Part shown: positions 8,476 to 35,199 of the stretch, piece by piece
Layout of the letters: each line of letters opens with the position of its first letter
Numbering within the stretch: position 1 is the first letter of the stretch
Assembly: GCA_934129895.1 (NCBI GenBank)
Contig: CAKOWY010000001.1
Location: forward strand, 272,788 to 336,787
Direction: 5' to 3'
DNA length: 64,000 bases
DNA from: an uncultured Clostridia bacterium
GTDB taxonomy: Bacteria; Bacillota; Clostridia; TANB77; CAG-508
Program-made: the position numbers and the translations under genes
Notes under the pieces: model-generated
What the model saw: the letters and a program-made list of their open reading frames with translations, nothing else
What the model was told of the DNA's origin: nothing
Database searches by the model: none

Positions 8476-9636
8476 CTATTTTTCTTTTGTTGGAACTTTT
8501 ATTACTACTTCAGTACCTTTTCCAACTTCACTTTTTATATCAATGCTTCCACCATTTCTATCTAATAAATCTTTGGCTATTGAAAGACCTAATCCTGTAC
8601 CACCCATTTCTCTACTACGAGCTTTGTCAACACGATAAAATCTTTCAAAAATTCTAGTTAAGTCTTCTTCTGGAATTCCTATTCCATTATCAAAAACCTT
8701 TATATATGCATCATTATAAACAAATCCTACATATATTTTAATTTCTCCACCTTCTTTTGTATATTTGATGCTATTTGTCATTATATTTAAAACAACTCTT
8801 TCAATATCATCTTTATCTGCATATACAAGTGGAACATCTGCTGTTACAAAACAATTTACACTATGATTTTTTCTTTTTATTTCTATTGCAAGCTTGTCCT
8901 GACATTTTTTAACAAGTTCTCCTAAATCAAATTGCTCTTTTTTTACAACATTTCTATTATTATCATTTTTTGAAAGTGTAAGTAAATCTGTTACTAATTT
9001 TGCCATTCTTCTTGCTTCTGATGCAATAACATTTAAGAATTTGCTTTGTGTTTCTTTATCATATTCTTCTTCTAATAATGTATCTGCATATCCCATAATT
9101 GATGTTATTGGTGTTTTTAATTCATGTGATACATCTGCAATAAATTCTTTTCTCATATTATCCAATTTTACATGTTCTGTTATATCTTGCAATACTGCTA
9201 TAACACCAACTGTTTTATCATTATCTTTTTTAAATGGTGCAAAATATACATTTAAAAATCTATCATCTATGCTTATTCTCTCTTCTGTATTAGTCCAGTT
9301 TTCAAGATATATAATTTTTTCAAGATTTATATGCAATCTGCCAAATATATCATCAAATGTTTTATCATTTGTTGATATATTCATCATTTGTTTTGCTGCT
9401 GGATTTATTAAAATAACAACTCCATTTCTATCAAATGCTATAATTCCATCTGTCATGTGTAAAAAGACACTATTATTTATATCTAAATCATCATTTGTAA
9501 CTCCAGAACCTTTTATTAATCTTGTCTTTGGAAATAACATTTTTCGTTTTAAATATTTTTTCATTAAGATTTCACTTATAATTAGTATTATTATATCTAT
9601 TAAAACTATTAGTATTATAAATTTGTAATTTTCCAA
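8476..9636 (-). CDS. sensor histidine kinase (TM + PAS + HisKA + HATPase_c), no adjacent response regulator
   Basis: It has an H-box (ADVSHELKTPITSIMGYADTL), a G-box (GGTGLGLSIAKDLL) and an N-terminal TM segment. Its ATG is 2 nt downstream of the murG stop, so it is likely co-transcribed with murG. Confidence 0.8.
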   Translation of the reverse strand: MENYKFIILIVLIDIIILIISEILMKKYLKRKMLFPKTRLIKGSGVTNDDLDINNSVFLHMTDGIIAFDRNGVVILINPAAKQMMNISTNDKTFDDIFGRLHINLEKIIYLENWTNTEERISIDDRFLNVYFAPFKKDNDKTVGVIAVLQDITEHVKLDNMRKEFIADVSHELKTPITSIMGYADTLLEEEYDKETQSKFLNVIASEARRMAKLVTDLLTLSKNDNNRNVVKKEQFDLGELVKKCQDKLAIEIKRKNHSVNCFVTADVPLVYADKDDIERVVLNIMTNSIKYTKEGGEIKIYVGFVYNDAYIKVFDNGIGIPEEDLTRIFERFYRVDKARSREMGGTGLGLSIAKDLLDRNGGSIDIKSEVGKGTEVVIKVPTKEK

Positions 9637-10785: not shown

Positions 10786-11961
10786 TTATTGCTTTAAACT
10801 AGCTCTAGAAATATTAAGCAGTACTCCCATTTCGCAAAGCAATAAGAATAATGCCGTTCCTCCATAACTGAAAAATGGTAATTGCATTCCTGTTACAGGC
10901 ATTGATGATGTTACTACTGCAACATTTATTAATACCTGAACTCCTACTAAAGCTGTTATTCCAATTGCAACCAAACTTCCAAACATATCTGGAGCTTTCA
11001 TTGCAATTAGTACACCTCTCCAAATAAATATTGCAAATAATAAAAATACTACTAAACATCCAACAAATCCTAATTCTTCTGCTAATACTGCAAAAATAAA
11101 GTCGTTATGTGGTTCTGAAAGATATAAATATTTTTGTTTACTTTCACCTAATCCAACTCCAAATAATCCTCCTGAGCCTATTGCATATAAACTTTGAATT
11201 ATTTGCCAACCACTATCTGTAGCATCTTTCCAAGGATCTGTGAATGTTATTACTCTTGTTACTATATATTGGAATTTATTTCTAAATGTTTCACTCACAA
11301 AATAAAGAACTGTAGCAATTCCTCCACCAGTGCCTCCAACTACTAAACCAGAGACAAGAAACTGCCAAAATTTACATCCTGCCATTATCATCATAATGCA
11401 ACAAACTATTATTATTACAAGTGATGTACTAACATGTGGTTCTAATAGTAATAGTCCTATTATTGGAATTAAGAACAATAAATTATATACAATTCCCTTC
11501 CAAAACTTTCCTAATATTTCTCTATTTTTTACAAGCATTTCTGCATAAAATATTATTATTAAAAATTTTACAATTTCAGACGGCTGAAATGAAAATATCT
11601 TTAAATCTATCCATCTTTTTGCACCATGACTGTCACTTCCAAATAAAAAAACTGCACATAATAATATTATTGACACAATATAAGCAATTTTGTAAAATTT
11701 TTGATAAATTCTATAATCTATTTTGGATATAAACCACATCATAAAAATTCCTGCAATAGCAAAACCTAATTGCTTTACAAAAAATTTATAACTAGTTCCA
11801 TATTTTTGTGCAGATGATGGTGCGCTTGCAGAAAGTACCATTATTAATCCTATAGAAAGTAATATTAAAATTGTTATTAACAATGTGAAATCTACAGAAT
11901 TATTCAAAAAACTAGAAAATCCTTTTACTTCCTGTTTATTTGTTTCTTTCTTTCTTGCCAT
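10786..11961 (-). CDS. SEDS-family peptidoglycan glycosyltransferase (FtsW/SpoVE/RodA)
   Basis: It is a polytopic SEDS protein sitting between mraY and murG, which in B. subtilis is the spoVE/ftsW position. Confidence 0.8.
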   Translation of the reverse strand: MARKKETNKQEVKGFSSFLNNSVDFTLLITILILLSIGLIMVLSASAPSSAQKYGTSYKFFVKQLGFAIAGIFMMWFISKIDYRIYQKFYKIAYIVSIILLCAVFLFGSDSHGAKRWIDLKIFSFQPSEIVKFLIIIFYAEMLVKNREILGKFWKGIVYNLLFLIPIIGLLLLEPHVSTSLVIIIVCCIMMIMAGCKFWQFLVSGLVVGGTGGGIATVLYFVSETFRNKFQYIVTRVITFTDPWKDATDSGWQIIQSLYAIGSGGLFGVGLGESKQKYLYLSEPHNDFIFAVLAEELGFVGCLVVFLLFAIFIWRGVLIAMKAPDMFGSLVAIGITALVGVQVLINVAVVTSSMPVTGMQLPFFSYGGTALFLLLCEMGVLLNISRASLKQ

Positions 11962-11996
11962 TTAAGCACATTTCCTTTCTTATGTTTAATAACTTT

Positions 11997-12983
11997 TTAT
12001 ATAATCTTTAGTCCAATTATACAAGCTAATAATGTTATTATACTAAATGTCATTACAACTTGATTTTCTCTCCATCCTGATAATTCAAAATGATGATGAA
12101 GTGGTGCCATTTTAAATACTCTTTTTCCTGTTTTCTTGAATACTGCAACTTGAATAATTACTGATAATGTTTCCAAAACTGGTATAATTGCAATAATTAA
12201 TAATAATAATGGCATTTTTAAGTATAATGCAATTCCAGATACAACACCTCCTAAAAACAGTGAGCCTGTATCTCCCATAAATGCTTTTGCAGGATATATA
12301 TTAAACATTAAAAATCCTAATGTTGCGCCTATAACTATTGCACCAAACACTACTATTTCTTTTATTCCAAACATTGTTGCTATAATTGTTAAACATGTAA
12401 TTATAATTGTACTTACACTTGATGATAATCCATCTATTCCATCTGTTAAGTTTATTGCATTTGTTGTTGCAAGTATTACTATAATTGCAAATGGTATATA
12501 TAACCATATTGGCATTGTTACATATTTATTAGCAAATGGTATATATGTTTCTGTCCCTATTTTTAGTCCCCATACTAAATATGCTACAAATGCAATTGAT
12601 ATTATAAGTAGTCCTAACATTTTTAGCTTTGGTTTTAATCCTTCTGTACTTTTTAGTACTAATTTTTTGAAATCGTCTATAAATCCTATAATTCCAAATC
12701 CTGTTGTTAAACATAATATTGGAATTAAATGTTTTGCAAGATTTGCATCTTTCACTTTATAATACATATAAGCTACTATTGTTATAATTATTATACCTAA
12801 CATTATAATAATTCCACCCATTGTTGGTGTTCCTTGTTTTTTTAAATGTGATTGTGGTCCATCTGTTCTTTCTATTTGACCTACTTTTAGTTTTCTTAAT
12901 ATTGGTACTATTATTAATCCAAGCAGTACTGTTACTGCAAATGTTCCTAATAGCATTTTTGTTTGAAAATCCACTTTTATCAA
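11997..12983 (-). CDS. mraY: phospho-N-acetylmuramoyl-pentapeptide transferase
   Basis: The MraY motifs NLTDGIDGL and HHHFE are present, with about 10 TM segments. Confidence 0.9.
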   Translation of the reverse strand: MIKVDFQTKMLLGTFAVTVLLGLIIVPILRKLKVGQIERTDGPQSHLKKQGTPTMGGIIIMLGIIIITIVAYMYYKVKDANLAKHLIPILCLTTGFGIIGFIDDFKKLVLKSTEGLKPKLKMLGLLIISIAFVAYLVWGLKIGTETYIPFANKYVTMPIWLYIPFAIIVILATTNAINLTDGIDGLSSSVSTIIITCLTIIATMFGIKEIVVFGAIVIGATLGFLMFNIYPAKAFMGDTGSLFLGGVVSGIALYLKMPLLLLIIAIIPVLETLSVIIQVAVFKKTGKRVFKMAPLHHHFELSGWRENQVVMTFSIITLLACIIGLKII

Positions 12984-13000
12984 CCTTTCTTCTGTTTTAT

Positions 13001-14464
13001 TTATCCTATAATTTCTTTTACTATTATTCTTTCGTCAAATGGATATTTTGTTCCATTTATTTCTTGATATGGTTCATGACCTTTTCCTGCAAGTACTATT
13101 ATATCTAGTTTGTTTGCCATTTCTATTGCTTCTTTTATTGCTTCTTTTCTGTCTACTACTACTTTATATTTTCCGTTTGTTTTTTTCATTCCTTCTTCAA
13201 TTTCTTTTACTATTTCTTCAGGCTCTTCTGTACGAGGATTATCTGTTGTTATAAATGTAAAGTCTGCTATTTTTCCTGATATTTCTCCCATTAATGGTCT
13301 TTTTCCTTTATCTCTATCTCCTCCACATCCAAATACAGATATTACTCTTCCTCTTGTATAGCTTTTTACTGCTGATAATATATTTTGTAAACTTTCTGGT
13401 GAATGTGCATAATCTATCATTATTGGTATTTCTTTTTTATTTGGTACCATTTCAGATCTTCCTGGTACTTTTATTTCTGCTAATGCTTCTATTACTTTGT
13501 CTGATGCTATTCCTAATTTTTTTGCTACACATATTGCTGCAAGTGCATTATATACACTAAATCTACCTGGAATATCTACTTTTACTCTTTCATTTCTGTC
13601 AGATACTTTTACTCTAAAATCTACATAAGAATTTGTTATTGTTATGTCTTTTGCTAATACTTCACAATAATTGTCTATTCCGTAAGTCATTATATTATTT
13701 TCTGGTAATAATCTTGGTATTTTTGATACTTGTAAATCATCAACATTTATTATTCCATTGTCACACATTTTGAATAGTTTTAATTTTGATTCAAAATAGT
13801 CTTTCATATCTGGATGTTCTTTTTCACTAATATGATCTTCTGAAAAGTTTGTAAATACTACTATATCAAAATTGCATCCATCTACTCTATGTAGTTTTAA
13901 GCTTTGTGATGATACTTCCATTACTACATATTCAACACCTACTTCTACCATTTGTGCAAATGTTTTTTGTAATTCTATACTTTCTGGTGTTGTTCTTGCA
14001 CTTTCTGATATCATTTTTCCGTTTATATATGTTGCTATTGTTCCTATTAATCCAACTTTATGTCCTGCTTTTTCTAATATTTCTTTAATCATATATGTTG
14101 TTGTTGTTTTTCCTTTTGTTCCTGTTACTCCTATTAATTTGAATTTTCTTGATGGATTTCCGTAGAAATTGCAACTACATATTGCTAATGCTTCTCTTGT
14201 GTCTTTTGCCATAATTATTGTTACATCTGCTGGTAATTTAATTTTTTTCAAGTCACAGCCTTCTTGAACCATTACTACTTTTGCTCCTGCTTCTATTGCA
14301 TTGTTTATATAGTCATGACCGTCTACACTATAACCTTTTATTGCTATAAACATATATCCTTCTTTTATGTTTTTTGAGTTACTTTCTAGTCCTGTTATGT
14401 CTAAGTCAAGGTTTCCTTTTGCTTTTAGTCCTTCTAATCCTACTAATATTTTCTTTAATTCCAT
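13001..14464 (-). CDS. murE: UDP-N-acetylmuramoyl-L-alanyl-D-glutamate--2,6-diaminopimelate ligase
   Basis: It has a Mur ligase P-loop (GVTGTKGKTTTTYMI) and a DNPR motif. The ATG at 14462-14464 has an AAAGGAG RBS, whereas the track start at 14521 is probably over-extended. Confidence 0.85.
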   Translation of the reverse strand: MELKKILVGLEGLKAKGNLDLDITGLESNSKNIKEGYMFIAIKGYSVDGHDYINNAIEAGAKVVMVQEGCDLKKIKLPADVTIIMAKDTREALAICSCNFYGNPSRKFKLIGVTGTKGKTTTTYMIKEILEKAGHKVGLIGTIATYINGKMISESARTTPESIELQKTFAQMVEVGVEYVVMEVSSQSLKLHRVDGCNFDIVVFTNFSEDHISEKEHPDMKDYFESKLKLFKMCDNGIINVDDLQVSKIPRLLPENNIMTYGIDNYCEVLAKDITITNSYVDFRVKVSDRNERVKVDIPGRFSVYNALAAICVAKKLGIASDKVIEALAEIKVPGRSEMVPNKKEIPIMIDYAHSPESLQNILSAVKSYTRGRVISVFGCGGDRDKGKRPLMGEISGKIADFTFITTDNPRTEEPEEIVKEIEEGMKKTNGKYKVVVDRKEAIKEAIEMANKLDIIVLAGKGHEPYQEINGTKYPFDERIIVKEIIG

Positions 14465-17894: not shown

Positions 17895-18539
17895 TTATTG
17901 TAATGCTTTTATTTCTTCTCTTAATTCTGCTATTCTCCCTTTTCTACTTTTTATTTGTTCACTTATCCTTTCTATTTCAACCATAAAACAAACTTCATCT
18001 TGTGAGCTTTCGTAAAATTCTGCGTTTTTTTCAAAGAATATGTCTATAACTCTTCCTATATTTAAATCTTTTAAACCGTTATCATATACTAATCCACGTA
18101 CATTAGAATATTCAACCAACTGATAAAAAAAACAATATTTAGGTCCTTTGCACCTCTTTTTTAAGTATTGTTTGTCACAACCTACATTTTTTTTACCATA
18201 ATCACATTTTATTTCTTCTATGTTTATATATAAATCTAATGGATTACATATACGTGAATTTTTTCGCAAAACTTCGTCAAGAGATAATCTCATACTTGTT
18301 ATTCCTTCTTGCATTCCACAAGGAGGAATTAATAAAAGTTCCTGTTTATTTTCTTCATCTGCCAATCTCCATTCTATACTGCCATTTGTTTCCGGACATT
18401 TTAATTCCAAATTTTTATGTTGCTTTAAAATTTCATATAAACTTATCCTTGGCTCAATTTTAGAACAAAACGGACATAGAAAACTAGATATATCAAATGC
18501 CCTTATGAATACTCTTTCTGAATTAAGAATATCATTCAT
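17895..18539 (-). CDS. hypothetical Cys-rich protein with C-terminal coiled coil (paralogue of the next gene)
   Basis: MNDILNSERVFIRAFDISSFLCPFCSKI... is followed by further Cys pairs and a C-terminal RIAELREEIKALQ segment. It has an AAAGAGGA RBS, and its ATG overlaps the upstream gene's stop by 8 nt. Confidence 0.6.
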   Translation of the reverse strand: MNDILNSERVFIRAFDISSFLCPFCSKIEPRISLYEILKQHKNLELKCPETNGSIEWRLADEENKQELLLIPPCGMQEGITSMRLSLDEVLRKNSRICNPLDLYINIEEIKCDYGKKNVGCDKQYLKKRCKGPKYCFFYQLVEYSNVRGLVYDNGLKDLNIGRVIDIFFEKNAEFYESSQDEVCFMVEIERISEQIKSRKGRIAELREEIKALQ

Positions 18540-19341
18540 TATCTGAATCCTCTTTCATAAATATGATATTTCTCTTACTCGAATATTTTTTCATAGGTTG
18601 TATTATTGGTTGTTCTGTAGGAACTTTATCTTTTTGACTTTGATTAGATACCTTCTTTCTTTTGGTCGAAGTTGATGACTTTTTACTTTTTGGGCTTTTA
18701 GCAACACTAGTTTTTTGAATCTCCTCTTTTTGAACTTGTTTAGACTCATCTACTTGTGAATTGATCTTTTCTTTTTCTTGAGCTTCCTTTTTTAATATTG
18801 CTAATTGACTCTCTAATTCTTGTTCTTCTATCTTTAATCTTTCTTCCTCTTTTCTTAATCTTTCAAGATAAAAAGTAGTTGAACATTGTTTATATTCTTC
18901 TGGATCAAATTCAAATGCCAATTGTATTGTTCTTGGTGATTTACAATACTTTCGATTTGCACAATTGTATTTATCACATTTTAAAGCTTTAGGAATAAGA
19001 TATACTCTTGGTTCATCTGGTGCTTCTTTGATATCATATCCAGATTGATATACTGATAAACAACAATTTTTAAAGCAAATTTTTGCATAAATACATGGCA
19101 AAAATAAGCCTGCTCCTTCTGAATAAGCTAATTTTATTACTAGATAAACTCCAGCTTCATACTCCTCCTCTGAAATTTCATCACAACTCAAATAAATTTT
19201 AAATTCATTGTAACGATCTGAAATATAACGTGAACTGTACTGCCCTTCAATTGAACTTATTCTTGAATTCCAATCATGCCATTTTCCACAGTAAGGACAT
19301 AAAAATCGCTTGATTTTGCAATTCAATAAACTTATATTCAT
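18532..19341 (-). CDS. hypothetical Cys-rich protein with coiled coil and Lys/Ser-rich tail (paralogue of the previous gene)
   Basis: It most likely starts at the ATG at 19339-19341 (MNISLLNCKIKRFLCPYCGKW), which has a GGAGG RBS. The track start at 19407 is a TTG. It shares with its neighbour the MN..L....FLCP(Y/F)C(G/S)K N-terminus and the same domain order. Confidence 0.6.
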   Translation of the reverse strand: MNISLLNCKIKRFLCPYCGKWHDWNSRISSIEGQYSSRYISDRYNEFKIYLSCDEISEEEYEAGVYLVIKLAYSEGAGLFLPCIYAKICFKNCCLSVYQSGYDIKEAPDEPRVYLIPKALKCDKYNCANRKYCKSPRTIQLAFEFDPEEYKQCSTTFYLERLRKEEERLKIEEQELESQLAILKKEAQEKEKINSQVDESKQVQKEEIQKTSVAKSPKSKKSSTSTKRKKVSNQSQKDKVPTEQPIIQPMKKYSSKRNIIFMKEDSDNE

Positions 19342-19515
19342 TCTGCTTCCTCCATAACTAATATTTCTCATTTGTAAAGTATCATCTAAGCTACTTATCT
19401 CAGACAATTCTTACATTTTTTCAGCGCATGTTATATTACAATTTTGATATTTTGCAAATCTATTATGTTTATTCAAAAAATAAAGATAAGTTATAAAACT
19501 TTTGATTTTACTAAC

Positions 19516-20556
19516 TTATCTACTTTCATCTTTTTTTCCCATATTTTCTAATCTTTGTATCCAATGTTGATTTTCATCTTCCATCTGTATTCCAATTTTA
19601 AATGCTTCTTCTTCATCTCTAATTAAATCACTAGGATTATCTTTCTTTTTACTACAATTAAAACTATTATACATTTCTATAGCTAAACTTTTTAAATCTC
19701 CATATTGATTATTTTTATATTTTAAATGTTTTATATTTTCTCTTACATCTTCAAAAAGACATCTACTAGTATTTGTATGCTCTCTTTTGGTATATACTAA
19801 AAATTCAAATTCTGCTACACTAGATTTTTTAGATATTTTTAATCCTGTTTGATATATATGAAGAATGAAATTGGCTATACCTAAAAATTGTTGTATAGGT
19901 ATTATTTTTGAACTTGAATAAAATCTATATACATTTTTTTTATTTCTTCCATTAGCTTCTATTGTTCTAACAGCTATTATTGAAATATTCCTTCCTTTTT
20001 CTATAACTATTCCATCTTTACAAATATCCATAGGTCCTGATTTTCTTATCAAACTTGATACTTTGTTATTTGAAAATTCAAATTGCGTAACATATTTTTT
20101 TGATTCTAAAACAATATGCCCTATTTCATACCATAATCCATTACTAGAATAATCAAAAACGCTTTTTTTGCTATTTCCAAATGGAAGTGTTTGTATTGCT
20201 TTTTCAATTCTTTCTTCATTAACTTTCTTCCCAGATTCTTGAACTAACAGCATTTTTTCTAAATCTTCATCACTTAGTTTTTGTCCTAGAACTTTTTCTA
20301 AAATAGCACTATATATTTCAAGTTTTCTATTTAATACTTCATTCTTTTTAGCTAGTGCCCTAATTCTTGCTATTTCTAAATTTCTCTCATCAATTGATGC
20401 ATTTATTTCATTAATTTTTTGATTTATTTCTTGCTCCTTTTGTAGTGTTTCTTTTCTTACTTGTTCTTCCGCTTCTCTTCTCAACCTTTCAGAAATCGTC
20501 TCTTCACTTGACACTTGTTTAGAATCTACTTCAGGATAAATTGTTCTTTTTTTCAT
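19516..20556 (-). CDS. hypothetical protein (N-terminal coiled coil, unknown C-domain)
   Basis: An AAAGAGG RBS precedes the ATG. It lies 11 nt downstream of the previous gene's stop. I recognise no domain in it. Confidence 0.55.
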   Translation of the reverse strand: MKKRTIYPEVDSKQVSSEETISERLRREAEEQVRKETLQKEQEINQKINEINASIDERNLEIARIRALAKKNEVLNRKLEIYSAILEKVLGQKLSDEDLEKMLLVQESGKKVNEERIEKAIQTLPFGNSKKSVFDYSSNGLWYEIGHIVLESKKYVTQFEFSNNKVSSLIRKSGPMDICKDGIVIEKGRNISIIAVRTIEANGRNKKNVYRFYSSSKIIPIQQFLGIANFILHIYQTGLKISKKSSVAEFEFLVYTKREHTNTSRCLFEDVRENIKHLKYKNNQYGDLKSLAIEMYNSFNCSKKKDNPSDLIRDEEEAFKIGIQMEDENQHWIQRLENMGKKDESR

Positions 20557-20567
20557 TTTTTACCTCT

Positions 20568-21203
20568 TTATTCCAATTCCATATATTCTGATTCTTCTTC
20601 TTCAATAACTTCCATTAATTGCTCTGACCAAAATTCTAATTCTCCTATATAATAATTTAATATTTTCTCCATAAGCTGCACATTAATTGTATTATAATGT
20701 TTTTGAATTAATTGTTGTATTTGATTAGCTTTTTCTGTTGTTATCGGATATTTTGATAAAAAGTCTACATCATATTCATTTAAAATACGATTTCGTAATA
20801 AATTCACTCTTTCAAACATATCATAATAAATTCCACACTTGTTTCCACATTCTAAATAATACACTATAGTGTCTATAGTCCATCTATTTCTAAGTAATGC
20901 CACAATTGTTCTTTCAGAAGACATTTCATGAGTAAATTTTTTTAATTCTTCCAAAACTTCTGAATTTTTTTCACCATAAGCTTGACTTAATTTATTTTTT
21001 ATTTTTAATTTTGACTTTTTTTTGGCTATCTTCTTTCTATATTTAGCAATTTCTTTTATGAAATCTAAATATTCTCTTGTTTGCTCTTGATCAATATGTT
21101 TTGAAATTGTGTCAACAACTCCTTTTATAATTGCATCATTTTCTGCTAAGATTTTTTCCTCATTTTCAATCTTTTCTTGACTTTCTTTTGATATGCGCTT
21201 CAT
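20568..21203 (-). CDS. hypothetical protein
   Basis: The ORF has a charged N-terminus. The ATG at 21201-21203 has a GAGGGG RBS, so the track start at 21218 is probably over-extended. Confidence 0.5.
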   Translation of the reverse strand: MKRISKESQEKIENEEKILAENDAIIKGVVDTISKHIDQEQTREYLDFIKEIAKYRKKIAKKKSKLKIKNKLSQAYGEKNSEVLEELKKFTHEMSSERTIVALLRNRWTIDTIVYYLECGNKCGIYYDMFERVNLLRNRILNEYDVDFLSKYPITTEKANQIQQLIQKHYNTINVQLMEKILNYYIGELEFWSEQLMEVIEEEESEYMELE

Positions 21204-21332
21204 TTTTGCCCCTCTCATATTTTTAACATAATATCTCTCCAGTTATTTAATTCTTCGTTTATGATTCTATATACATTTATTATTTGAATATTTATATTCT
21301 TATTCATTACAATTTCTGTATTTGTGACTTTT

Positions 21333-21518
21333 TTATTTTGATATGCATATTTTAACATTCCGCTTTGCTCTTAATTCATTTTGAATTTGTTTTATTTCTT
21401 GAAAATCTTCTTTTGTCATTTGTAATATTTCTTTATTAGACATATATTGTGATAATATTTCTATTTTTTCTATATAACCTAAAATTTTTTTATAATTGTT
21501 TATATTTTCTTTTTCCAT
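21333..21518 (-). CDS. small hypothetical protein (61 aa)
   Basis: It is a short ORF with a weak RBS, co-oriented at the head of the hypothetical-protein array. Confidence 0.3.
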   Translation of the reverse strand: MEKENINNYKKILGYIEKIEILSQYMSNKEILQMTKEDFQEIKQIQNELRAKRNVKICISK

Positions 21519-21609
21519 TATTAAAATCTCTTTCCATAATTTTTTATTTTAGGCTTAATTGCCAGCTCAAAAGTAACATAATTATATAACAATAATATAA
21601 AATTGTCAA

Positions 21610-21653
21610 TAAAAAAGCTAAGAGCTACCACAAATCTGTGATAGCTCTTGCTT
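21610..21653 (-). terminator. Rho-independent terminator closing the island operon
   Basis: Imperfect 16-bp stem AAGCTAAGAGCTACCACA / TGTGATAGCTCTTGCTT with an AATC loop. It begins 1 nt after the TAA stop at 21655-21657 and is followed on the minus strand by TTTTTTATT. Confidence 0.6.
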
Positions 21654-21654
21654 T

Positions 21655-22614
21655 TTAGTCTAACGTATCTGCCTGTACGATATTAGCAGGTGTAAAATAT
21701 CTTGCAAATAAATTTCCACCTACTTCATATCCACCCATAGTTGCGTTTATTGCATTAAATTGTAACTCTCTCGAAGCCAGAGATTCAATGATAAAAATTA
21801 CATTTTCAGAAATTAACTTCATTATCATCTCCAATGTCTGAATTGTAAGGGGATTTGTACTAGTACAAATAACAAATACAAACTTAGTATTTGCACTGTA
21901 AAATCTTTGCATTTTTCCAATGATTTTTTTGAATGTTTCGTTCCTTTGACTTCGCATAGATATTGTATAGAGTCTTTTAAGTCCACTCTCCCAATAATTC
22001 ATATATTCATCACTGGGATCACTATAAAGCTCTTGAAGATATGTTAAAATCTCCCTTGCCTCATATTCTATATAACTATCTCTATAATATCCTACATGAT
22101 ATCTATCATCTTTTTCTATCTCATTCATTATAGTTGCTGCAATAAGATTATAGATATCATGTCCAGTGTTTGCAATGTCAACTCGATTGAATAAGACAAC
22201 ATCCTGATTTCTAATATCATATAAGGTTCTATCTACCAGGATATCGGCATTCATTCCAAATACCCCAATCAAACCAGTATTACATTTAGGTCTGTTTATG
22301 AGTGGCTGTACTTTAGCTGTAAGCTGATTTGATCTTCTTGCCGTTCTATCAGAACTTTCTACAGCTCTTGATGCAGTCATGGGAACTACTTCAGAATTTT
22401 CCCTTTGATTTCTGAAATCTTCTGATGATTGTTCATTTCTCCTCTCTTCTCTAGTTGCATAATTACTATTTTCCTGATAACTTTGATAAGATTCAGCATA
22501 ACTGTCTTGTCTTCTTGCTTCGTTTCTTATCTCAGTTTCTTCCTTTTTTGGACTATTTTGAGCAGTAATTTTCTGCCCAGTTTGTTCAAAATATATTTGG
22601 CGCCGTCTTGCCAT
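21655..22614 (-). CDS. hypothetical protein, last gene of island operon (about 100-aa polar disordered N-terminus + uncharacterised C-domain)
   Basis: Its ATG overlaps the upstream TAA (TAATG), and an AAAGGAG RBS is present. The N-terminus is rich in Q/E/R/S/N (QNSPKKEETEIRNEARRQDSYAESYQSYQENSNY...). The C-domain (GLIGVFGMNADILV...KFVFVICTSTNPL) is unassigned. Confidence 0.7.
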   Translation of the reverse strand: MARRRQIYFEQTGQKITAQNSPKKEETEIRNEARRQDSYAESYQSYQENSNYATREERRNEQSSEDFRNQRENSEVVPMTASRAVESSDRTARRSNQLTAKVQPLINRPKCNTGLIGVFGMNADILVDRTLYDIRNQDVVLFNRVDIANTGHDIYNLIAATIMNEIEKDDRYHVGYYRDSYIEYEAREILTYLQELYSDPSDEYMNYWESGLKRLYTISMRSQRNETFKKIIGKMQRFYSANTKFVFVICTSTNPLTIQTLEMIMKLISENVIFIIESLASRELQFNAINATMGGYEVGGNLFARYFTPANIVQADTLD

Positions 22615-24020
22615 TATTTTCTCCTTTCACATTGTGATAAGGAATTTTTCTCCAATAACAAACTCTTTGCCCTGTTTTTCACAGGATCTTTAAATTCGCC
22701 TCTTTCTATTATCTCATAAAACCATCTTTTTGCATCAGCCGTGTAAACATCCAGTACTTTTTTGGCTCTTTCTTGCTCGAATTGACTTCTTGCATTAGTA
22801 ATAACCAATATAACTTTTTCAAATTCTTTAACATACTGGAGTTTTTCTGCAGTATCTGTTCCTGCAATAAAAGCATGTTTTTGACGATAGCTTGCTTTTA
22901 TAATATTTTTAGGAAATTGCATTAAGGCATGACATGCCAAAAAATATTCTCCTAAAATACTTCCTTCAGTCATTTCTCTTTCAGGAGCAGGATAACATGT
23001 TGCAGAAAATATTTGTTCAATTGTCCTCATTCTCCTTTGCTTTACAGTTGCCTCAATCTGATTTGGAAGTTCTGCTGCTTTAGTTCCCTCTACAGGTTCA
23101 TAACTTGCAACTCCAATATCACTGAAATATCCTTTTTCGAGATATTGAACCAAACCTCTAAATTCAGATTCCGTTTCTCCAGGATATCCAACAATTACTT
23201 CTGTTGAAATAATCAAATCAGGACGCAGTCTTTTTAAAGCATTTATCTTTTTATCCACATCTTCAAATAGTGGACGATTCATGCTTTTTAAGATACTTGG
23301 TGAACTATGCTGTATATGCAACATAATTTCAACAATGTTTGCGTTTTGTCCAATGAGTTCAATCACTTCATCAGTTAAACCTGCCGGATGAAACCAACCA
23401 ATAACATATCTGCAATCAGGATAGCCTTTTACAATTCTTGTCATCAGTTCAGCAAATTTTCTTTTTCCATACAAATCAACACCATAATCAGATGTTTCTT
23501 GTGCACCTGTAATATAAATAGTCGATTCGCTTGGATACATATTGCTAACTTCTTGCAAAATGTCTTGCATGCTTTTACTATGATATTCACCATAAAATTG
23601 AGGATAAACACAATAAGAGCATCTATGATTACAACCAGTCGAAATAATAACTTTGTTTTGTGGAATCCATTGAACATTAATATTGGGTTTATTGAACTTT
23701 GCAAGTACTTCTTCAAAAGATTTTACCTTAATTGGTGCTTCTTCTTTTAACTCTTTCAGTTCTTCTTTGCAAAGTCTTTCCAAACACCCTGTAACGATAA
23801 CTTCAGCATCTTTTTTCTTATTAATGCAAACATCTGCAATAACCTGCATAGAATACAGCTTATTAGGACCAAAAGCACAGGTAAGAATGATTATACAATC
23901 AGCAATCGTATAATCATTTACTACTTCATACCCAACAGTACTTTTAACCCGATTTACCAGTTGATTTGCATTATCAATGTCCATGTGCATGTCATTACAG
24001 AGAATTACCGCAACTTTCAT
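22614..24020 (-). CDS. radical SAM methylthiotransferase-like enzyme (MiaB/RimO/MtaB-type architecture)
   Basis: The N-terminal MTTase-type domain has three Cys (ILCND, ILTCAF, VTGCLERLC). The radical-SAM CxxxCxxC motif is CNHRCSYC. A C-terminal extension of more than 100 aa follows. The ATG overlaps the upstream TAA, and a GGAGG RBS is present. Confidence 0.8.
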   Translation of the reverse strand: MKVAVILCNDMHMDIDNANQLVNRVKSTVGYEVVNDYTIADCIIILTCAFGPNKLYSMQVIADVCINKKKDAEVIVTGCLERLCKEELKELKEEAPIKVKSFEEVLAKFNKPNINVQWIPQNKVIISTGCNHRCSYCVYPQFYGEYHSKSMQDILQEVSNMYPSESTIYITGAQETSDYGVDLYGKRKFAELMTRIVKGYPDCRYVIGWFHPAGLTDEVIELIGQNANIVEIMLHIQHSSPSILKSMNRPLFEDVDKKINALKRLRPDLIISTEVIVGYPGETESEFRGLVQYLEKGYFSDIGVASYEPVEGTKAAELPNQIEATVKQRRMRTIEQIFSATCYPAPEREMTEGSILGEYFLACHALMQFPKNIIKASYRQKHAFIAGTDTAEKLQYVKEFEKVILVITNARSQFEQERAKKVLDVYTADAKRWFYEIIERGEFKDPVKNRAKSLLLEKNSLSQCERRK

Positions 24021-24604
24021 TAATATCCTCCTTCACGCACTTTCGTACGAGAATCTGTAGTTTTGGATTTTGTTTTGGTTTCCTGCTGATATTCTTTGGT
24101 GAACTCTCGATTTGCAACTTTACCAAGTGCATTTTCAAGTGCAAGATATTTTTCACATTTCTTGCCTTTGAGCCCTTTGGGTTCAAACTTTACTTCACCA
24201 TCTTCAGATACAGATACCATCATAAATCCACCACTAGAATCCTGGGGATCTCTAACCTTGTAGCTACCTCCTTCTTGTTTGCTCACACTCAAATGCATCT
24301 TTTTGGCAGTCTTTTTCATCATCTCAATCGCATAATTGCTCATGATTATCGAACCATTATAGCCAATATATCTGGTAACATGACCGTCCCAAAAATCAGC
24401 CGTAATGTTATAATTGCCTGTCATGCTCTTTTCAAGTGCACAATCATATATTCCTGGAAGTTTTACTACATTCTCCTTTAACTGTGCACCTCCATAAAAC
24501 CGACACATTCCTTCGTCAACCATGTTAAGTCCCATGTTCGCCAAAGCTGATCTTGCACACTCCAAATCTCGGATCTCGGTATAAATAGTTGTAAAATGAC
24601 TCAT
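24020..24604 (-). CDS. Ycf35/DUF1257-like protein with Lys/Thr/Glu-rich C-terminal tail
   Basis: The N-terminus MSHFTTIYTEIRDLECARSALANMGLNM matches, from recollection, the MSHF..I.T.I.D...L..AL.DLG start of plastid/cyanobacterial Ycf35 (DUF1257). A TAATG overlap and GGAGG RBS are present. Confidence 0.65.
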   Translation of the reverse strand: MSHFTTIYTEIRDLECARSALANMGLNMVDEGMCRFYGGAQLKENVVKLPGIYDCALEKSMTGNYNITADFWDGHVTRYIGYNGSIIMSNYAIEMMKKTAKKMHLSVSKQEGGSYKVRDPQDSSGGFMMVSVSEDGEVKFEPKGLKGKKCEKYLALENALGKVANREFTKEYQQETKTKSKTTDSRTKVREGGY

Positions 24605-26244
24605 TACTGATTTCCTCCTTCAAAATTGATTGTTCGACCAGTCTTTTTCTTTTTATTAGTAGTGCTTCCTTTGCTTTCTGCACTATCATCTGAATGAATA
24701 TTAGCCCAACGAATATTTTCTTTTTGTGCCCATTCTGTTAATGCTTCTACGGTTTCTTTCATGATTCCTTTAGATGCTGGTTGAAGTACTTCCATCTGAT
24801 TTAAAATATCGTTTGTATTCAATTCTCTTGCATTATCTGCAAAGGAATTAAACATTGCCGATATCACGGCTTCTTCGATTTCTGCACCTGTGAAACCATC
24901 AGATACCTCAGCCAATTTTTCAACATCAAAGCTTTGAGCATTACGCCCTTTCTTTTCAAGTTGAATACTTACAATTTCTTCTCTTTCTTTTAAATTAGGA
25001 AGACCGACAAAAAAGATTTCATCAAATCGTCCTTTTCTCAAAAGTTCAGGTGGAAGAGATGTAATATTATTGGCAGTTGCAATAACATAAACTGCAGATT
25101 CTTTTTCCTGCATCCATGTAAGAATACTTGCAAACATACGGGAAGATACTCCAGAATCGTTTCTACCACCTGCTCCAGCACCAGCTAAACCTTTTTCAAT
25201 CTCATCAATCCACAACACACAAGGTGACATGGCTTCTGCCGTCTGAAGGGCTTTTCTGGTATTGGCTTCTGTATCACCAACATAGCTTCCAAAAAGTTTT
25301 CCAAGATCACATTTAATGAGCGGAACACTCCAAGTATTTGCCAATGCTTTGGCTGCCAAGCTCTTTCCGCATCCAGGAATACCTACAAGCAATACTCCCT
25401 TAGGGTTAGGTAAACCATATTTTTTTGCCTTATCTGAATATGCCAGAATACGCTTCTGGGTATATTCCTTAAAGTTTTGCATTCCTCCCACTTTAGTAGA
25501 ATCATGATTGTTCCAAAACTCAAGCAAACCATCTTTACAAATTATTTGTGCCTTAACTTCCGAAACAATCTCTAAATCAAGAGCCCGCTTTTTTGAAAAA
25601 GACGTTGATATTGCATTTTCAGCCTGATTTAACGTCAATCCCAGTAAAATCTCTGCTGCCTTTTCTGTTATAGACGAAATCTTTTCAAGTTCACTTGCCT
25701 TCAAATTGTCCTTGAATCTTTCAACCATATCATTAATGAGCTCTACAAAATCTTCTTTTTTAGGGAGCTCTAAATCAATGGAAACTGTAGATTCTTCCCA
25801 ATCTTTAGGCACGTCAAATTGATTGCTAATAAAGATAAAACAACATCCAATTTCATTTGCTTTTTCAAATGCTTCTTTTGCTGCTCGCAAAACCAAAGGC
25901 TGATCAACAAAATGATGGAAATCAAGCATACATAAAATGTATTCTCCTTGCTCATCATTAAGTTTTAAGCCTTCAGTTAATGCTTCTTGAGGATCTGTGA
26001 CATCTGCGTTTTCTTCTACCAGGTAATAATCTTCCATGTCGATATAATTTTTGTCACCACGAATTTGGATTCTGGGATCAACAACCTCCATGATTCCCCT
26101 TGTACAAGACCAATAGTATACCCTTTTTTGATAATGCTGACCTGCTCTTAAACAATCTGCCAAGGCCCGGTTTTCTTCGGGTGTTTGCAGGATAACTGAT
26201 GAGTAACCTGCGCTGATACAACCAGAGATGGATAATTTACTCAT
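24604..26244 (-). CDS. Ycf46-family AAA+ ATPase
   Basis: It has Walker A (GIPGCGKS), Walker B (LWIDEIEK) and the Ycf46-like segments TWMQEKESAVYVIATANN and LLRKGRFDEIFFVGLP. The preferred start is the ATG at 26242-26244 (MSKLSISG), which has a GGAGG RBS. The track start at 26259 lacks an SD. Confidence 0.85.
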   Translation of the reverse strand: MSKLSISGCISAGYSSVILQTPEENRALADCLRAGQHYQKRVYYWSCTRGIMEVVDPRIQIRGDKNYIDMEDYYLVEENADVTDPQEALTEGLKLNDEQGEYILCMLDFHHFVDQPLVLRAAKEAFEKANEIGCCFIFISNQFDVPKDWEESTVSIDLELPKKEDFVELINDMVERFKDNLKASELEKISSITEKAAEILLGLTLNQAENAISTSFSKKRALDLEIVSEVKAQIICKDGLLEFWNNHDSTKVGGMQNFKEYTQKRILAYSDKAKKYGLPNPKGVLLVGIPGCGKSLAAKALANTWSVPLIKCDLGKLFGSYVGDTEANTRKALQTAEAMSPCVLWIDEIEKGLAGAGAGGRNDSGVSSRMFASILTWMQEKESAVYVIATANNITSLPPELLRKGRFDEIFFVGLPNLKEREEIVSIQLEKKGRNAQSFDVEKLAEVSDGFTGAEIEEAVISAMFNSFADNARELNTNDILNQMEVLQPASKGIMKETVEALTEWAQKENIRWANIHSDDSAESKGSTTNKKKKTGRTINFEGGNQ

Positions 26245-26333: not shown

Positions 26334-26362
26334 ATTATATCACATCCCTTAATTTATGTCAA
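26334..26362 (-). promoter_or_regulatory. consensus sigma-A promoter of the four-gene island operon
   Basis: On the minus strand it reads TTGACA (26357-26362) - 17 nt - TGATATAAT, with the -10 at 26334-26339. It is an extended -10 and lies about 85 nt upstream of the ATPase start. Confidence 0.5.
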
Positions 26363-26457: not shown

Positions 26458-27180
26458 TTAAAATCTTATCGGACCATCTCCAGAATCAACAATGATTATA
26501 AAATCAGTAATCTTATGTTCTACAAACCATCTTAAAATCTCTCGACTTTGCTCATCCACCTTATAATATCCTAATGCACAAAAAACTTTTGTGTCATATT
26601 GTAAAAAGGCCTTTTTCAGTGATTGTATTGCTTCTTCTATATTTTTAGCTTCTTCTCCTATTACTCTCCTTTGATATCTTTCTTTATAACTCATAGGGTA
26701 TTGATAATGAAAACCTAGATTTTGTGCACAATATTGCAAATTATACCTTTGTTCAACGATTTCGATATACCTTAAACGTGAATATGCTGTATCTTCGCAC
26801 CTACTATACACTGATACTAAGCTTTCTGCAATACGCCAAAAGATATTGGAAAAAGATTCCATAGAGATAAAACCCAAGAATACTGTTTGCAAAGAAAAAA
26901 TAGAATTCGATATTCTGGCTGTACTATCTCTAAATTTTTTTATTTCAGAATAAGCATTTTCTCCGTAAACATTTATTATATTCGTCTTAGGATTCTCTTC
27001 TCTAAATAATTGTGTTGCCACTTTTTCGAACCCGCGATCTCTTACTAATTGAATCCCCTCGTTTCTTTGAACTTTAGAGTTTTCTTCATTTGGTTCTTCT
27101 TCACTTTTTAAAAATACAAATTCGCTATCTTTGCGTACCAAGATTTCTCCATTGTTTTCTGCATAAATTTTCCGTCTCAT
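26458..27180 (-). CDS. hypothetical protein (first gene of island, own promoter and terminator)
   Basis: The ATG at 27178-27180 (MRRKIYAENNGE) has a GGAGG RBS, whereas the track start at 27201 is a TTG. I recognise no domain; the C-terminus ends ...ITDFIIIVDSGDGPIRF. Confidence 0.65.
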   Translation of the reverse strand: MRRKIYAENNGEILVRKDSEFVFLKSEEEPNEENSKVQRNEGIQLVRDRGFEKVATQLFREENPKTNIINVYGENAYSEIKKFRDSTARISNSIFSLQTVFLGFISMESFSNIFWRIAESLVSVYSRCEDTAYSRLRYIEIVEQRYNLQYCAQNLGFHYQYPMSYKERYQRRVIGEEAKNIEEAIQSLKKAFLQYDTKVFCALGYYKVDEQSREILRWFVEHKITDFIIIVDSGDGPIRF

Positions 27181-27263
27181 ACTGTACCTCCATGTTGTCA
27201 ATTATTCATTTTTTACATTCTGTTGAACTGTTTCAGAATCGTTTTTAAACAAAACTTACGTGT

Positions 27264-27292
27264 ATTATATCATTTTTGCAATTTTATGTCAA
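27264..27292 (-). promoter_or_regulatory. consensus sigma-A promoter of the 240-aa island gene (near-duplicate of 26334-26362)
   Basis: It reads TTGACA (27287-27292) - 17 nt - TGATATAAT, with the -10 at 27264-27269. The surrounding sequence cgtgtattatatcat...ttatgtcaatt closely matches the operon promoter. Confidence 0.45.
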
Positions 27293-27300
27293 TTAATCTT

Positions 27301-33149: not shown

Positions 33150-35117
33150 TTAAAAATATCTTTTGTAACAAATATTTAAATCTATATTTCCAGTTATACC
33201 AGCAATTTTTCCTTTATCTGTATATTGCCACATATCATATCCTTTTGAATATTTAAATATATCATCTGGAAGTTGCCCATTACTTTCGCCATAATCTGCA
33301 ATCCATATATTATAATCTTCTGGTAATTTATTTATATCTAAATAATTTGCTAACCAATATGAATATGAGTATACTCCGACTTCATATCCAGCTGATTTCA
33401 TTGTATTGCAAAATGCTATAGTTATTTTAGTTATTGTTTCTTTATCTATATTTTTCTGTGTTTCGTCTTCTATATCAAAAAATATAGGTAATTCAAATTT
33501 TGTTTGATTACTATTTTTTAAATATTTTATTGTTTCTTCTGCTTCTTTTTTAGCTCCTTCAACATCTTTTGCATAAGAATATATGTAAGCTCCTAATGGA
33601 ATTTTTTTGTTTTTGGTTTCTTTATAATTTCTCTTAAATTGATCATCTTCTATAAATTTCTTTTGATCTTCACTATACCATCCTATTCTTGCTATCATAA
33701 AATCAATTTTTTTACTTGCAACAACTTTATTATAATCAATTTTATTTTGCCATTTTGATACATCTACTCCAATATAATATCTTTTATAATGTGGTACTAT
33801 TCTGATTTCTATTGCTTCTATTTTTAAATTTCGTCCTGTTGTACCAGCACTTTCACCATCTATATACCACTCTGTCCATCCTATATCTTGGACATGTACT
33901 CTATATTCTACAGTATATTCATCTAAATTTTCCAATTTTATTTTTATTGCTTCTATTTTTAGTCCTTTATTTAATATTCCTGCTTTTTCATCAGCATTTA
34001 CCCAGCTCATCCACCCTATATCCTGTACATGAACCATATATTTTATTTTTTCATTTTCTTTTGCATTTATTAATTCCATACTTATTGCTTCTAATTTTCT
34101 ATTTTGCCCTGTAGTACCTGCTGTTTCACCATTTTTTAGAATTTTGTTTTCTTCTGGTACATTTCCTTCAAGATAAGCATAATATTCAATTCCAATTTTA
34201 TCTGAATTATTATTTTCTTTTTCTATTATCATTATTTGTATTGCCTCTATTTTTTCAGTAGCTGATATTTTTCCAGCAATTGCACCATTTTCTACCCAAT
34301 TCATCCAACCTTCATTTTCAACATGAACTCTATATTTAACTGTATATTTATTGGTTCCTTCTATTTTTATTCTTATTCCAAATAATCTCAAATTTTTTCC
34401 TGTCGTTCCTGTTTGTTCTCCGTTTTTTACCCAATTTTGCCAACCAGCATTTTCTACATAAGTTTTATATTTTATATTTACTCCACTAGGTGCATTGTTT
34501 AATTTTATTTTCAATGCTTCTGTTTTTAAATTTTCCCCAATTGTTCCTGAAATATCATATTCTGTTTTTTCTGCTTGCCAACCTATGTCTTGTACATGAG
34601 AACTATAAGTTACAGAAATATTGTTATTATTTTTTTTAGAAACAATTCTAATTTCTATTGCTTCTATTTTTAAGCCATCACCTAAATTTCCTGAAATTTT
34701 GCCATCGCTTACCCATTCTGTCCAACCAATATCTTGTACATGTGTCCTATATTCAATAGAATATTCACTTGTGTTTTCTAACCAAATTTTAATTGCTTCC
34801 ATTCTTAAATTTTTTCCTGTTGTTCCTGTTTGTTCTCCATTAGAAACTGTTTTTTGCCATCCTTTTCCTTGAATATAAGTTGTATATTTTATATTTATTC
34901 CATTACTATTTTTTAGTTTTATATTTAATGCTTCAACTTTTAAATTTTTTCCTGTTGTCCCTGCTTGTTTACCTTCAGTAACATATTCTTGCCATCCTAT
35001 ATCTTGTACATGTGTACGATATTCTACTTCTGGCTTTACTGAAGCTGCCCTTACATCTACTTTTAATACAAAAATATATAATATAATTAATAATATTATT
35101 CCAATTGTTTTTTTCAT
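33150..35117 (-). CDS. secreted ChW-repeat protein with C-terminal GH25 muramidase domain
   Basis: A signal peptide is followed by about 9 repeats of YxxHVQDIGWxxW...AGTTGxxLxxEAIxIxL (ChW-type). The C-terminal GVDVSKWQ...DIED...WIADYG segment is a GH25 lysozyme. Confidence 0.8.
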   Translation of the reverse strand: MKKTIGIILLIILYIFVLKVDVRAASVKPEVEYRTHVQDIGWQEYVTEGKQAGTTGKNLKVEALNIKLKNSNGINIKYTTYIQGKGWQKTVSNGEQTGTTGKNLRMEAIKIWLENTSEYSIEYRTHVQDIGWTEWVSDGKISGNLGDGLKIEAIEIRIVSKKNNNNISVTYSSHVQDIGWQAEKTEYDISGTIGENLKTEALKIKLNNAPSGVNIKYKTYVENAGWQNWVKNGEQTGTTGKNLRLFGIRIKIEGTNKYTVKYRVHVENEGWMNWVENGAIAGKISATEKIEAIQIMIIEKENNNSDKIGIEYYAYLEGNVPEENKILKNGETAGTTGQNRKLEAISMELINAKENEKIKYMVHVQDIGWMSWVNADEKAGILNKGLKIEAIKIKLENLDEYTVEYRVHVQDIGWTEWYIDGESAGTTGRNLKIEAIEIRIVPHYKRYYIGVDVSKWQNKIDYNKVVASKKIDFMIARIGWYSEDQKKFIEDDQFKRNYKETKNKKIPLGAYIYSYAKDVEGAKKEAEETIKYLKNSNQTKFELPIFFDIEDETQKNIDKETITKITIAFCNTMKSAGYEVGVYSYSYWLANYLDINKLPEDYNIWIADYGESNGQLPDDIFKYSKGYDMWQYTDKGKIAGITGNIDLNICYKRYF

Positions 35118-35199
35118 TTTATCACTTCCCTTAGTATATATTATAAACGCCAAAAAAGGATTTTTCAACCATTATTAAAAAATCCTTTCCTAGTAATTT

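Follow-up and report, generated by a model that had tools for sequence, protein, structure and literature searches.

The minus strand of the 64,000-nucleotide (nt) stretch of DNA studied here (the window), which spans positions 272,788-336,787 of contig CAKOWY010000001.1 (GCA_934129895.1) from an uncultured Clostridia bacterium (TANB77; CAG-508), carries a gene for an AAA+ ATPase of 546 amino acids (aa; 24604-26244), directly followed by a gene for a 194-aa protein (24020-24604). With moderate confidence, we regard this locus as a clostridial version of a module that occurs widely and consists of a Ycf46-type AAA+ ATPase and the small domains DUF1257 and DUF2997, extended here by a putative methylthiotransferase and a 319-aa protein (p319). 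Among the 'conserved hypothetical' genes of cyanobacterial and plastid genomes, Ycf46 and Ycf35 count as some of the oldest, and we know of no biochemical function for the Ycf46 operon, which in model cyanobacteria is among the units that stress induces most strongly; the clostridial variant offers a new handle on its role.

The ATPase, the fusion protein and the radical-SAM enzyme

Translation of the ATPase is assigned to the ATG at 26244, which lies 7 nt downstream of a GGAGGA ribosome-binding site. Because of this site, and because public gene calls for identical ATPase sequences likewise give 546 aa, the coordinates and length in the original prediction for this locus are correct, and a mechanical call that starts at 26259 (551 aa) includes five codons too many. 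The motifs named there, LWIDEIEK, TWMQEKESAVYVIATANN and LLRKGRFDEIFFVGLP, are all found in the protein. The stop codon of the ATPase gene overlaps the start codon of the 194-aa gene in the sequence TAATG, with a GGAGG site within the last ATPase codons. Of a 'translationally fused' operon, as it had been described, the single operon and the TAATG coupling thus stand, but the two genes are separate ones that are coupled in translation.

By sequence, the ATPase falls, as predicted, into the Ycf46 family and into none of the FtsH, ClpX, PAN or Cdc48 families, because its match to Ycf46 runs over the full length including the N-terminal domain, whereas the FtsH, Cdc48 and PAN models cover the core alone. 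For instance, the Richelia 'stress-responsive protein Ycf46' (P0153) is 38% identical over 505 of the 546 residues (BLASTP, E 7e-117), PHROG 8638 matches residues 12-535 (E 1.6e-126), and tblastn covers residues ~11-513 in 17 cyanobacterial loci among the matches listed; in the three of these whose names were looked up, NCBI or UniRef calls the protein 'stress-responsive protein Ycf46' or 'Uncharacterized AAA domain-containing protein ycf46'. The NCBIfam models of FtsH, ClpX, PAN and Cdc48, on the other hand, match only the core (residues ~257-493), where they reach 20-118 bits and would need 359-1008 to pass their cut-offs, and even with IetA added these models together span only residues ~257-513, far under their cut-offs. 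Pfam places AAA at residues 289-419 (E 1.4e-32) together with AAA_lid_3, and detects neither protease nor zinc-binding domains in the protein. Sequence matches in the PDB are confined to residues 257-466.

The AF2 model of the ATPase (predicted local distance difference test, pLDDT, 83.4) aligns in Foldseek over ~560 columns with the D1-D2 tandems of p97, NVL, AFG2 and Rix7 (E 5e-22, TMq up to 0.60). Since the model superposes on such tandems, the N-terminal 245 residues (~10-245 in the 551-aa numbering) form a D1-like, degenerate AAA module that lacks the P-loop. The D2 domain contains a Walker A (GIPGCGKS), a Walker B (LWIDE), a pore loop (YVG), sensor-1 (ATAN) and the arginines of RKGRFDE, and the residues G296-K299-S300, D352-E353, N397 and R408/R411 are invariant in the alignment of 23 family members (A1). 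Judging from the model, the ATPase is a two-tier, p97-like protein with a D2 that has every motif needed for ATP hydrolysis in addition to the pore loop. It shares with p97/Cdc48/VAT, NVL/Rix7 and AFG2 the two-tier fold over its full length and a classical AAA D2 with second region of homology and pore loop. Unlike these unfoldases, it has no nucleotide-binding motifs in D1 and no p97-type N domain, its sequence likeness to them is limited to D2 (residues 257-466), and its partners and substrates are unrelated to theirs.

The 194-aa protein begins with MSHFTTIYTEIRDLECARSALANMGLNM, as originally read, with MSHFT at residue 1. M1, S2, H3, F4 and T5 are invariant in alignment A3, while in alignment A2 the S is invariant and M and H are near-invariant; an 'MSH' N-terminus is described as a hallmark of Ycf35 (PMC13060386), and the predicted Ycf35-type N-terminus is thereby borne out. 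The identification with DUF1257 fared less simply, as the direct match to PF06868 (E 0.0024) stays with 18.5 bits under the gathering score of 22.2. At the profile level, however, hhalign relates the fusion family to standalone DUF1257 proteins with a probability of 99.5% (E 2e-22, 110 columns). PF06868 is matched by 25 of 28 aligned relatives (best E 1.8e-26), and BLASTP finds a cyanobacterial 'DUF1257 domain-containing protein' (P0183) at 32% identity over 73 aa (E 3e-14). When the protein was split for iterated hidden Markov model (HMM) searches against all open reading frames (ORFs) of the fetched loci, the HMM of its N-terminal half picked up proteins of ~116-135 aa adjoining the ATPase. 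By this profile-level evidence we consider the DUF1257 homology firm despite the sub-threshold Pfam score, and assign the domain to residues 1 to ~112 (24269-24604). The remainder matches Pfam DUF2997 (PF11211) at residues 130-173 (E 1.6e-10), its 41.1 bits exceeding the cut-off of 24.1, and hhalign against standalone DUF2997 proteins gives a probability of 98.4% (E 4e-15); the domain occupies residues ~125-175 (24080-24232). Cys and Gly residues are invariant in the standalone DUF2997 proteins (alignment A5), and in the fusion family G144 and G147 are invariant and C150 is present in at least 90% of sequences. On sequence evidence, the 194-aa protein is thus a DUF1257-DUF2997 fusion. Its AF2 model (pLDDT 83.3; predicted template modelling score, pTM, 0.78) has a beta-alpha-beta4-alpha arrangement at residues 3-102, a hairpin at 106-118 and a small beta-beta-alpha-alpha-beta-alpha domain at 127-181. 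A PDB profile search with DUF1257 gave nothing significant and hence no solved structure as a sequence relative, and a BFVD fold search with the fusion model returned a single unnamed match at E <= 0.001. Public databases label the fusion proteins only 'hypothetical protein', for instance in Heliobacterium mobile.

The third gene (22614-24020) encodes a 468-aa protein with UPF0004 (PF00919, E 6.7e-08) and Radical_SAM (PF04055, E 1.7e-18) domains. Like RimO, MiaB and MtaB, it combines a UPF0004 domain with three cysteines (C8, C48 and C79, presumptive ligands of the auxiliary cluster) with the radical-SAM motif CxxxCxxC (C130, C134, C137), and all six are invariant in seven orthologues. RimO, a member of the methylthiotransferase family that acts on a protein, is the nearest relative by model (TIGR01125, E 1.5e-61, score 208.8 against a cut-off of 356.95) and by solved structure (4JC0, E 1.4e-39, residues 28-333). 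The remaining scores likewise fall short of their cut-offs (methylthiotransferase family, TIGR00089, 205/251; MtaB 156.7/357; MiaB 137.9/355). The alignment to 4JC0 ends at residue 333, and Pfam detects no TRAM, the substrate-binding domain of methylthiotransferases, in the 468-aa protein. In contrast to RimO, MiaB and MtaB, the TRAM is replaced by an unrelated, family-specific C-terminal domain of ~130 aa (~residues 335-468), conserved among the seven orthologues, and the gene sits in an ATPase operon. A homology search with the C-terminal 134 aa alone found two close relatives and no new architecture. We therefore describe the enzyme as methylthiotransferase-like by sequence, without TRAM and under every curated score.

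The fusion gene overlaps the radical-SAM gene (24020 to 22614), and the latter overlaps the gene of p319 (22614 to 21655), in the same TAATG sequence that joins the ATPase and fusion genes, and at both junctions the final codons of the preceding gene contain a GGAGG-type site. The p319 protein (21655-22614) belongs to no assigned family: it has a disordered N-terminus and a conserved LIGVFG.N.D motif, it matches nothing in Pfam or in a profile search of the PDB, and relatives of it occur in eight clostridial loci. Upstream, a promoter-like site (26334-26362, minus strand) precedes the ATPase, past a hairpin that trails an upstream 247-aa gene; it consists of TTGACA, a 17-nt spacer and a TG-extended TATAAT and is recognized by its 12/12 match to the consensus. 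Downstream, a terminator-like hairpin of 13 pairs with a T run (21620-21649, minus strand) closes the four-gene unit, and directly after it a second promoter-like site with 12/12 consensus (21581-21609, minus strand) precedes five further genes (17895-21518). From the TAATG overlaps, the hairpin and the two consensus promoters, we delimit a unit 1 of four genes (ATPase, fusion protein, radical-SAM enzyme and p319), by appearance co-transcribed and translationally coupled, and a unit 2 of five genes. The 'two-component' module of the original prediction was thus drawn too small, as it omits the DUF2997 domain within the 194-aa protein and the two further genes coupled by identical overlaps.

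Distribution of the module and its cyanobacterial counterpart

The distribution was assessed by a scan of one genome per species, with the alignment of 23 ATPase family members as query. The 80 loci retrieved by the ATPase are among the matches listed (600 stretches), to which the counts of loci in this paragraph refer, and their proportions reflect this sample. In these 80 loci, residues ~11-513 align at 35-40% identity. A DUF1257 gene is adjacent in 36, a DUF2997 gene in 21 and either of them in 38, always on the same strand and with gaps of no more than 1.6 kilobases (kb) for DUF1257 and 2.6 kb for DUF2997. The proposed linkage of Ycf46 and DUF1257 across phyla is therefore supported. Yet the pairing is not special to organisms outside cyanobacteria, for in all 17 listed cyanobacterial loci DUF1257 lies 54-186 base pairs downstream of Ycf46. 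Separate DUF1257 and DUF2997 genes accompany the ATPase in 10 of 16 listed myxobacterial or 'delta' loci and in two archaeal ones, and also in loci of Omnitrophota, KSB1 and Thermodesulfobacteriota, whereas the listed Armatimonadota and most of the listed Chloroflexota loci have the ATPase alone. Among the loci gathered, the fusion of the two small domains is found only in Clostridia and Heliobacteria, and the methylthiotransferase partner only in Clostridia. Since DUF1257 and DUF2997 are fused here and separate genes elsewhere, they likely act together (the Rosetta-stone argument), and the clostridial fusion predicts that they do so as one unit. When 1.84 billion representatives were searched exhaustively by profile, 1061 clusters emerged at E <= 0.001, the best 150 of which comprise ~18 full-length fusions and otherwise standalone proteins of ~125 aa beginning at residue 1; because the family is so rare, chance adjacency is negligible.

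In cyanobacteria, the three-gene operon slr0373-slr0374-slr0376 (Synpcc7942_0416-0418) is strongly stress-induced (PMC7496141; bioRxiv 10.1101/2025.07.21.665879). The cyanobacterial loci retrieved here match this operon, as they have a ~115-aa gene upstream and a DUF1257 gene downstream of Ycf46. The ~115-aa protein, whose sequence (MQxKQKVTLYLPPELHRxLKIRAAVD ... CPxC; L021, L058, L060, L079 and L082 at ~8500-8900, upstream of Ycf46) seems by eye to be ribbon-helix-helix and zinc-ribbon-like, is presumably the equivalent of slr0373, and we infer from the gene order in other cyanobacteria that slr0376 is DUF1257. The Ycf46-DUF1257 pair is thus already present in the cyanobacterial stress operon, though it is not discussed there as such, and within the library searched none of the literature mentioning DUF1257 or DUF2997 describes a linkage to the ATPase. 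The window locus resembles the cyanobacterial operon in its full-length ATPase homologue (38% over 505 aa) and in the DUF1257 gene with an MSHF N-terminus that directly follows; neither has a defined function, the cyanobacterial one being known only as stress-induced (PMC7496141). It differs in that an adjacent DUF2997 and a radical-SAM gene are not found there. Set against that operon, what is new is the fused form, its coupling to a RimO-like enzyme that lacks TRAM, and p319. A second point of comparison is the cyanobacterial cluster of the ferredoxin gene fed7 with DUF2997 and ycf35 (PMC4284462), which has the same domain family with an MSH N-terminus (PMC13060386) and DUF1257 and DUF2997 as neighbours, in line with their fusion in the window, but features a ferredoxin and no ATPase, while the window protein is a fusion adjoining an ATPase. 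As all 17 listed cyanobacterial Ycf46 loci have DUF1257 downstream, the Ycf46-adjacent paralogue is by gene context a better counterpart of the 194-aa protein than the fed7-linked Ycf35.

Among close relatives of the window locus, known from metagenomes by fusion proteins with 46-99% identity, the order ATPase, fusion, radical-SAM gene (and p319) is kept in L001-L006 and L009-L012. In these ten loci the radical-SAM gene (47-64% identity) is the immediate successor of the fusion gene, whose stop codon overlaps or abuts its start codon, and in most cases a relative of p319 comes next. The flanks, by contrast, vary among the relatives and comprise a two-component system, NrdD/Ham1 to HrcA/GrpE, LepA, and MurD to SRP54.

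The module also reaches phages, as Pseudomonas phage SM1, found separately, carries the ATPase together with a DUF1257 and a DUF2997 gene. A tblastn search of phages with the 194-aa protein gave no match, and a scan of IMG/VR yielded one contig (L092) with ATPase and fusion but without the large radical-SAM gene; the fused form is essentially not phage-borne. In SM1 (L097, KU245542, 5303-5955), the DUF1257-like SM1_029 and the DUF2997-like SM1_030 lie ~1.5 kb downstream of the Ycf46-like AAA+ gene SM1_026, and the annotated start of SM1_029 at 5366 is too far downstream, as a start at 5303 restores the MSH N-terminus.

The module has a recurring link to iron-sulfur (Fe-S) and radical chemistry. 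In five loci of archaea, Anaerotignum, Bellilinea and Anaeromyxobacter (L028:14628-15200, L069:8182-8841, L050:5347-5919, L056:11218-11790, L073:7523-8554), the Ycf46-like ATPase, DUF1257 and DUF2997 are adjoined by a Fer4_12 and Radical_SAM protein of ~190 aa that resembles the NrdG/PflA activases and is unrelated to the clostridial methylthiotransferase. Together with Fed7 and the methylthiotransferase, this makes three different Fe-S partners for the same pair of small proteins.

Several of these loci have further neighbours. In the archaeal loci L015 (3100-4338) and L028 (10530-14615), one of which comes from a Hodarchaeota metagenome-assembled genome (MAG), a DUF1257-DUF2997-ATPase series is directly followed by an Mre11-like metallophosphoesterase, after which L028 has a Rad50/SbcC-like ATPase. 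A KSB1 MAG (L091:6347-12618) contains three tandem Ycf46-like AAA paralogues around the DUF1257 and DUF2997 genes. In a Bellilinea MAG (L056:9000-10601 and 11781-14030), an Hsp70/actin-like ATPase stands between the Ycf46-like gene and DUF1257, and a WD40-repeat protein after the small radical-SAM gene; the arrangement resembles conflict systems of multicellular bacteria.

The original prediction had placed the gene pair on a horizontally acquired island, and the G+C content at third codon positions (GC3) is consistent with this and supports a recent acquisition: it amounts to 0.26 in the ATPase gene, 0.33 in the fusion gene, 0.21 in the radical-SAM gene, 0.22 in p319 and 0.23 in the upstream 247-aa gene, against 0.118 +/- 0.033 in 39 other genes of the window, while unit 2 (0.10-0.17) is nearer to this background. 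Because the values of 0.21-0.33 stand out from 0.118, acquisition of the module by a gut Clostridium-like species is plausible but not proven. The cassette is flanked by housekeeping genes, with subunits of pyruvate:ferredoxin oxidoreductase, MurE, MraY and FtsW on one side and MreB, glycosyltransferases and a ChW-repeat lysozyme on the other, and its flanks in the window hold no integrase, flanking tRNA or att-like repeat; candidate att-like direct repeats turned out to be AT-rich, low-complexity chance matches. The exact 194-aa protein is recorded in 192 data blocks, with identical immediate neighbours in the three places read, including a Hadza gut metagenome.

Proposed mechanism and competing explanations

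How might such a module work? We propose, with moderate to low confidence, that a hexamer of the ATPase acts on a client protein, which it unfolds or remodels. The DUF1257-DUF2997 protein, for which a KA1/TBP-like binding fold is predicted and which shows no sign of catalysis, would then serve as adaptor or regulator of the ATPase, its exposed Met-Ser-His N-terminus and the conserved DUF2997 cysteine being candidate contact or ligand sites. Of the unfoldase-plus-adaptor module of the original prediction, a two-tier ATPase with a partner is thus retained, the adaptor role being conjectural. Alternatively, the small protein could be a substrate, or a carrier of sulfur or metal. The methylthiotransferase, which has both Fe-S cluster sites, may attach a methylthio group to a macromolecule on which the complex acts, or modify it by related radical chemistry, and by analogy with RimO a protein is the likelier target than tRNA; p319 would be a fourth subunit.

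Several points weigh against this reading. Besides the dependence of the above proportions on the sample, neither DUF1257 nor DUF2997 is found near 41 of 79 listed Ycf46-like ATPases, so either the ATPase can act without them or the HMMs missed diverged copies. Since Heliomicrobium, a representative of the Heliobacteria, has the ATPase and the 194-aa fusion without the radical-SAM gene, the radical-SAM enzyme is an add-on and stands outside the core. Furthermore, the pore-loop aromatic varies across the family (Y, L, F or M), so that threading is not guaranteed; tRNA is itself a possible target of the methylthiotransferase; and the mechanism is drawn from sequence and predicted structures.

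The module has a wide reach: the unit of ATPase and DUF1257, usually with DUF2997, extends to anaerobic gut Firmicutes, archaea and a Pseudomonas phage, and its presence so far beyond phototrophs argues against a photosynthesis-specific role. The repeated radical-SAM and ferredoxin neighbourhood points to a specific chemistry, and four co-translated proteins offer a tractable system for an old question. A bolder view, to which we give little credence, is that the trio constitutes an ancient ATP-driven machine, present in bacteria, archaea, phages and as remnants in plastids, that presents a client to Fe-S or radical enzymes, and that in Clostridia the unfoldase feeds a protein substrate to the TRAM-less RimO-like enzyme. 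If true, this would amount to a new ATP-dependent pathway of protein methylthiolation (or a related radical modification) and would give Ycf46 and Ycf35 a biochemical role.

The variable partners of a conserved core could also be read as those of an anti-phage defence or conflict system, in which the AAA+ ATPase and small sensors or adaptors control exchangeable effectors: the radical-SAM enzyme here, Mre11/Rad50-like pairs in archaea, and Hsp70-like and WD40 proteins in Chloroflexota. The placement of the cassette between housekeeping genes, at different sites in different genomes, and its foreign-looking GC3 would suit this explanation, as would a STAND-like ATPase adjoining the module in L069 and the match of the ATPase core to the PADLOC models of IetA (E 2.2e-33; NCBIfam IteA_antiphage, 100.5 bits). 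However, this resemblance to IetAS spans the generic ATPase core only (residues 273-513) and stays far short of the NCBIfam cut-off of 510, an IetS protease is missing, the D1-like module is not common to both, and the ATPase core (IetA, TRIP13) is all that matches PADLOC-DB 2.0, the nine other proteins giving no match. Neither known defence genes nor an integrase or att-like repeats flank the cassette, and the exact 194-aa protein keeps identical neighbours in the three places read among its 192 data blocks. Moreover, the module forms a core stress-induced operon in cyanobacteria (PMC7496141), ycf46 and ycf35 persist in plastid genomes, and a lytic-type Pseudomonas phage itself carries the trio. 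We consequently judge a defence function unlikely.

Less probable still is a maturation cluster like those of ribosomally synthesized and post-translationally modified peptides (RiPPs), in which the radical-SAM enzyme would modify the 61-aa product of unit 2 or the 194-aa protein, and the ATPase would unfold or export the product. Such a cluster could account for the conserved ORF of 61-78 aa by the cassette in L001-L005 and the window, for the two Fe-S sites of the enzyme, for the conserved Cys and Gly residues of DUF2997, and for the small NrdG/PflA-activase-like radical-SAM proteins that adjoin DUF2997 in other phyla. Yet the 61-aa gene belongs to a separate transcription unit past the terminator and is missing from L009-L012, which keep the radical-SAM gene, and its sequence resembles a plain helical protein. 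Pfam reveals no leader-peptide recognition domain, protease or transporter, and we know of no methylthiotransferase-type radical-SAM enzyme that acts in RiPP synthesis. Finally, that the radical-SAM gene is an ordinary housekeeping RimO or MtaB standing beside the Ycf46-DUF1257 pair in a cassette without functional unity is very improbable, since, although it matches RimO best (TIGR01125, E 1.5e-61), along with the general MiaB/RimO family, and has RimO as its nearest solved structure, it scores well below the cut-offs (208.8 vs 357 for RimO, 205 vs 251 for the family), has in place of TRAM a distinct C-terminal domain conserved within the group only, and keeps its place after the fusion gene in ten loci.

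Further features of the window

Unit 2 (17895-21518, minus strand) is present with the core only in the closest relatives. It encodes proteins of 61 aa (21333-21518), 216 aa (20568-21218), 346 aa (19516-20556), 291 aa (18532-19407) and 214 aa (17895-18539) without assigned function, for which no Pfam, PADLOC or informative PHROG match was obtained. The 61-, 216- and 346-aa families recur in L001-L005 only, and the 291- and 214-aa families in L006. The last two were considered as paralogues, a reading that was rejected, as the common feature is a CPxC knuckle only.

Three consecutive proteins of unit 1 end in ...EGGNQ, ...EGGY and ...ERRK (24020-24045, 24604-24625 and 22614-22640), endings that are shaped by the GGAGG-type sites. 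The idea that a terminal GG marks a tag like ubiquitin or Pup was accordingly rejected: in the fusion protein and the ATPase, the EGGY and EGGNQ ends arise from the GGAGG sites that serve the following genes, and they are unconserved in L009-L012.

For the upstream 247-aa gene (26458-27201), the related loci offer no homologue; the gene may have arrived with the acquired segment. Its own promoter (27264-27294), with 12/12 consensus, is 74% identical over 31 nt to that of the ATPase.

At 33150-35168, the window encodes a protein of 672 aa that combines a GH25 lysozyme domain with nine clostridial hydrophobic W (ChW) repeats, which supports a Clostridia-type host and fits the Clostridium-like host originally proposed. 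Throughout the window (1-64000), all ORFs taken as real genes lie on the minus strand and the GC skew is negative; the stretch lies on one replichore of a genome of ~26% G+C, and its only tRNA gene is a tRNA-Glu(CTC) at 62008-62082.

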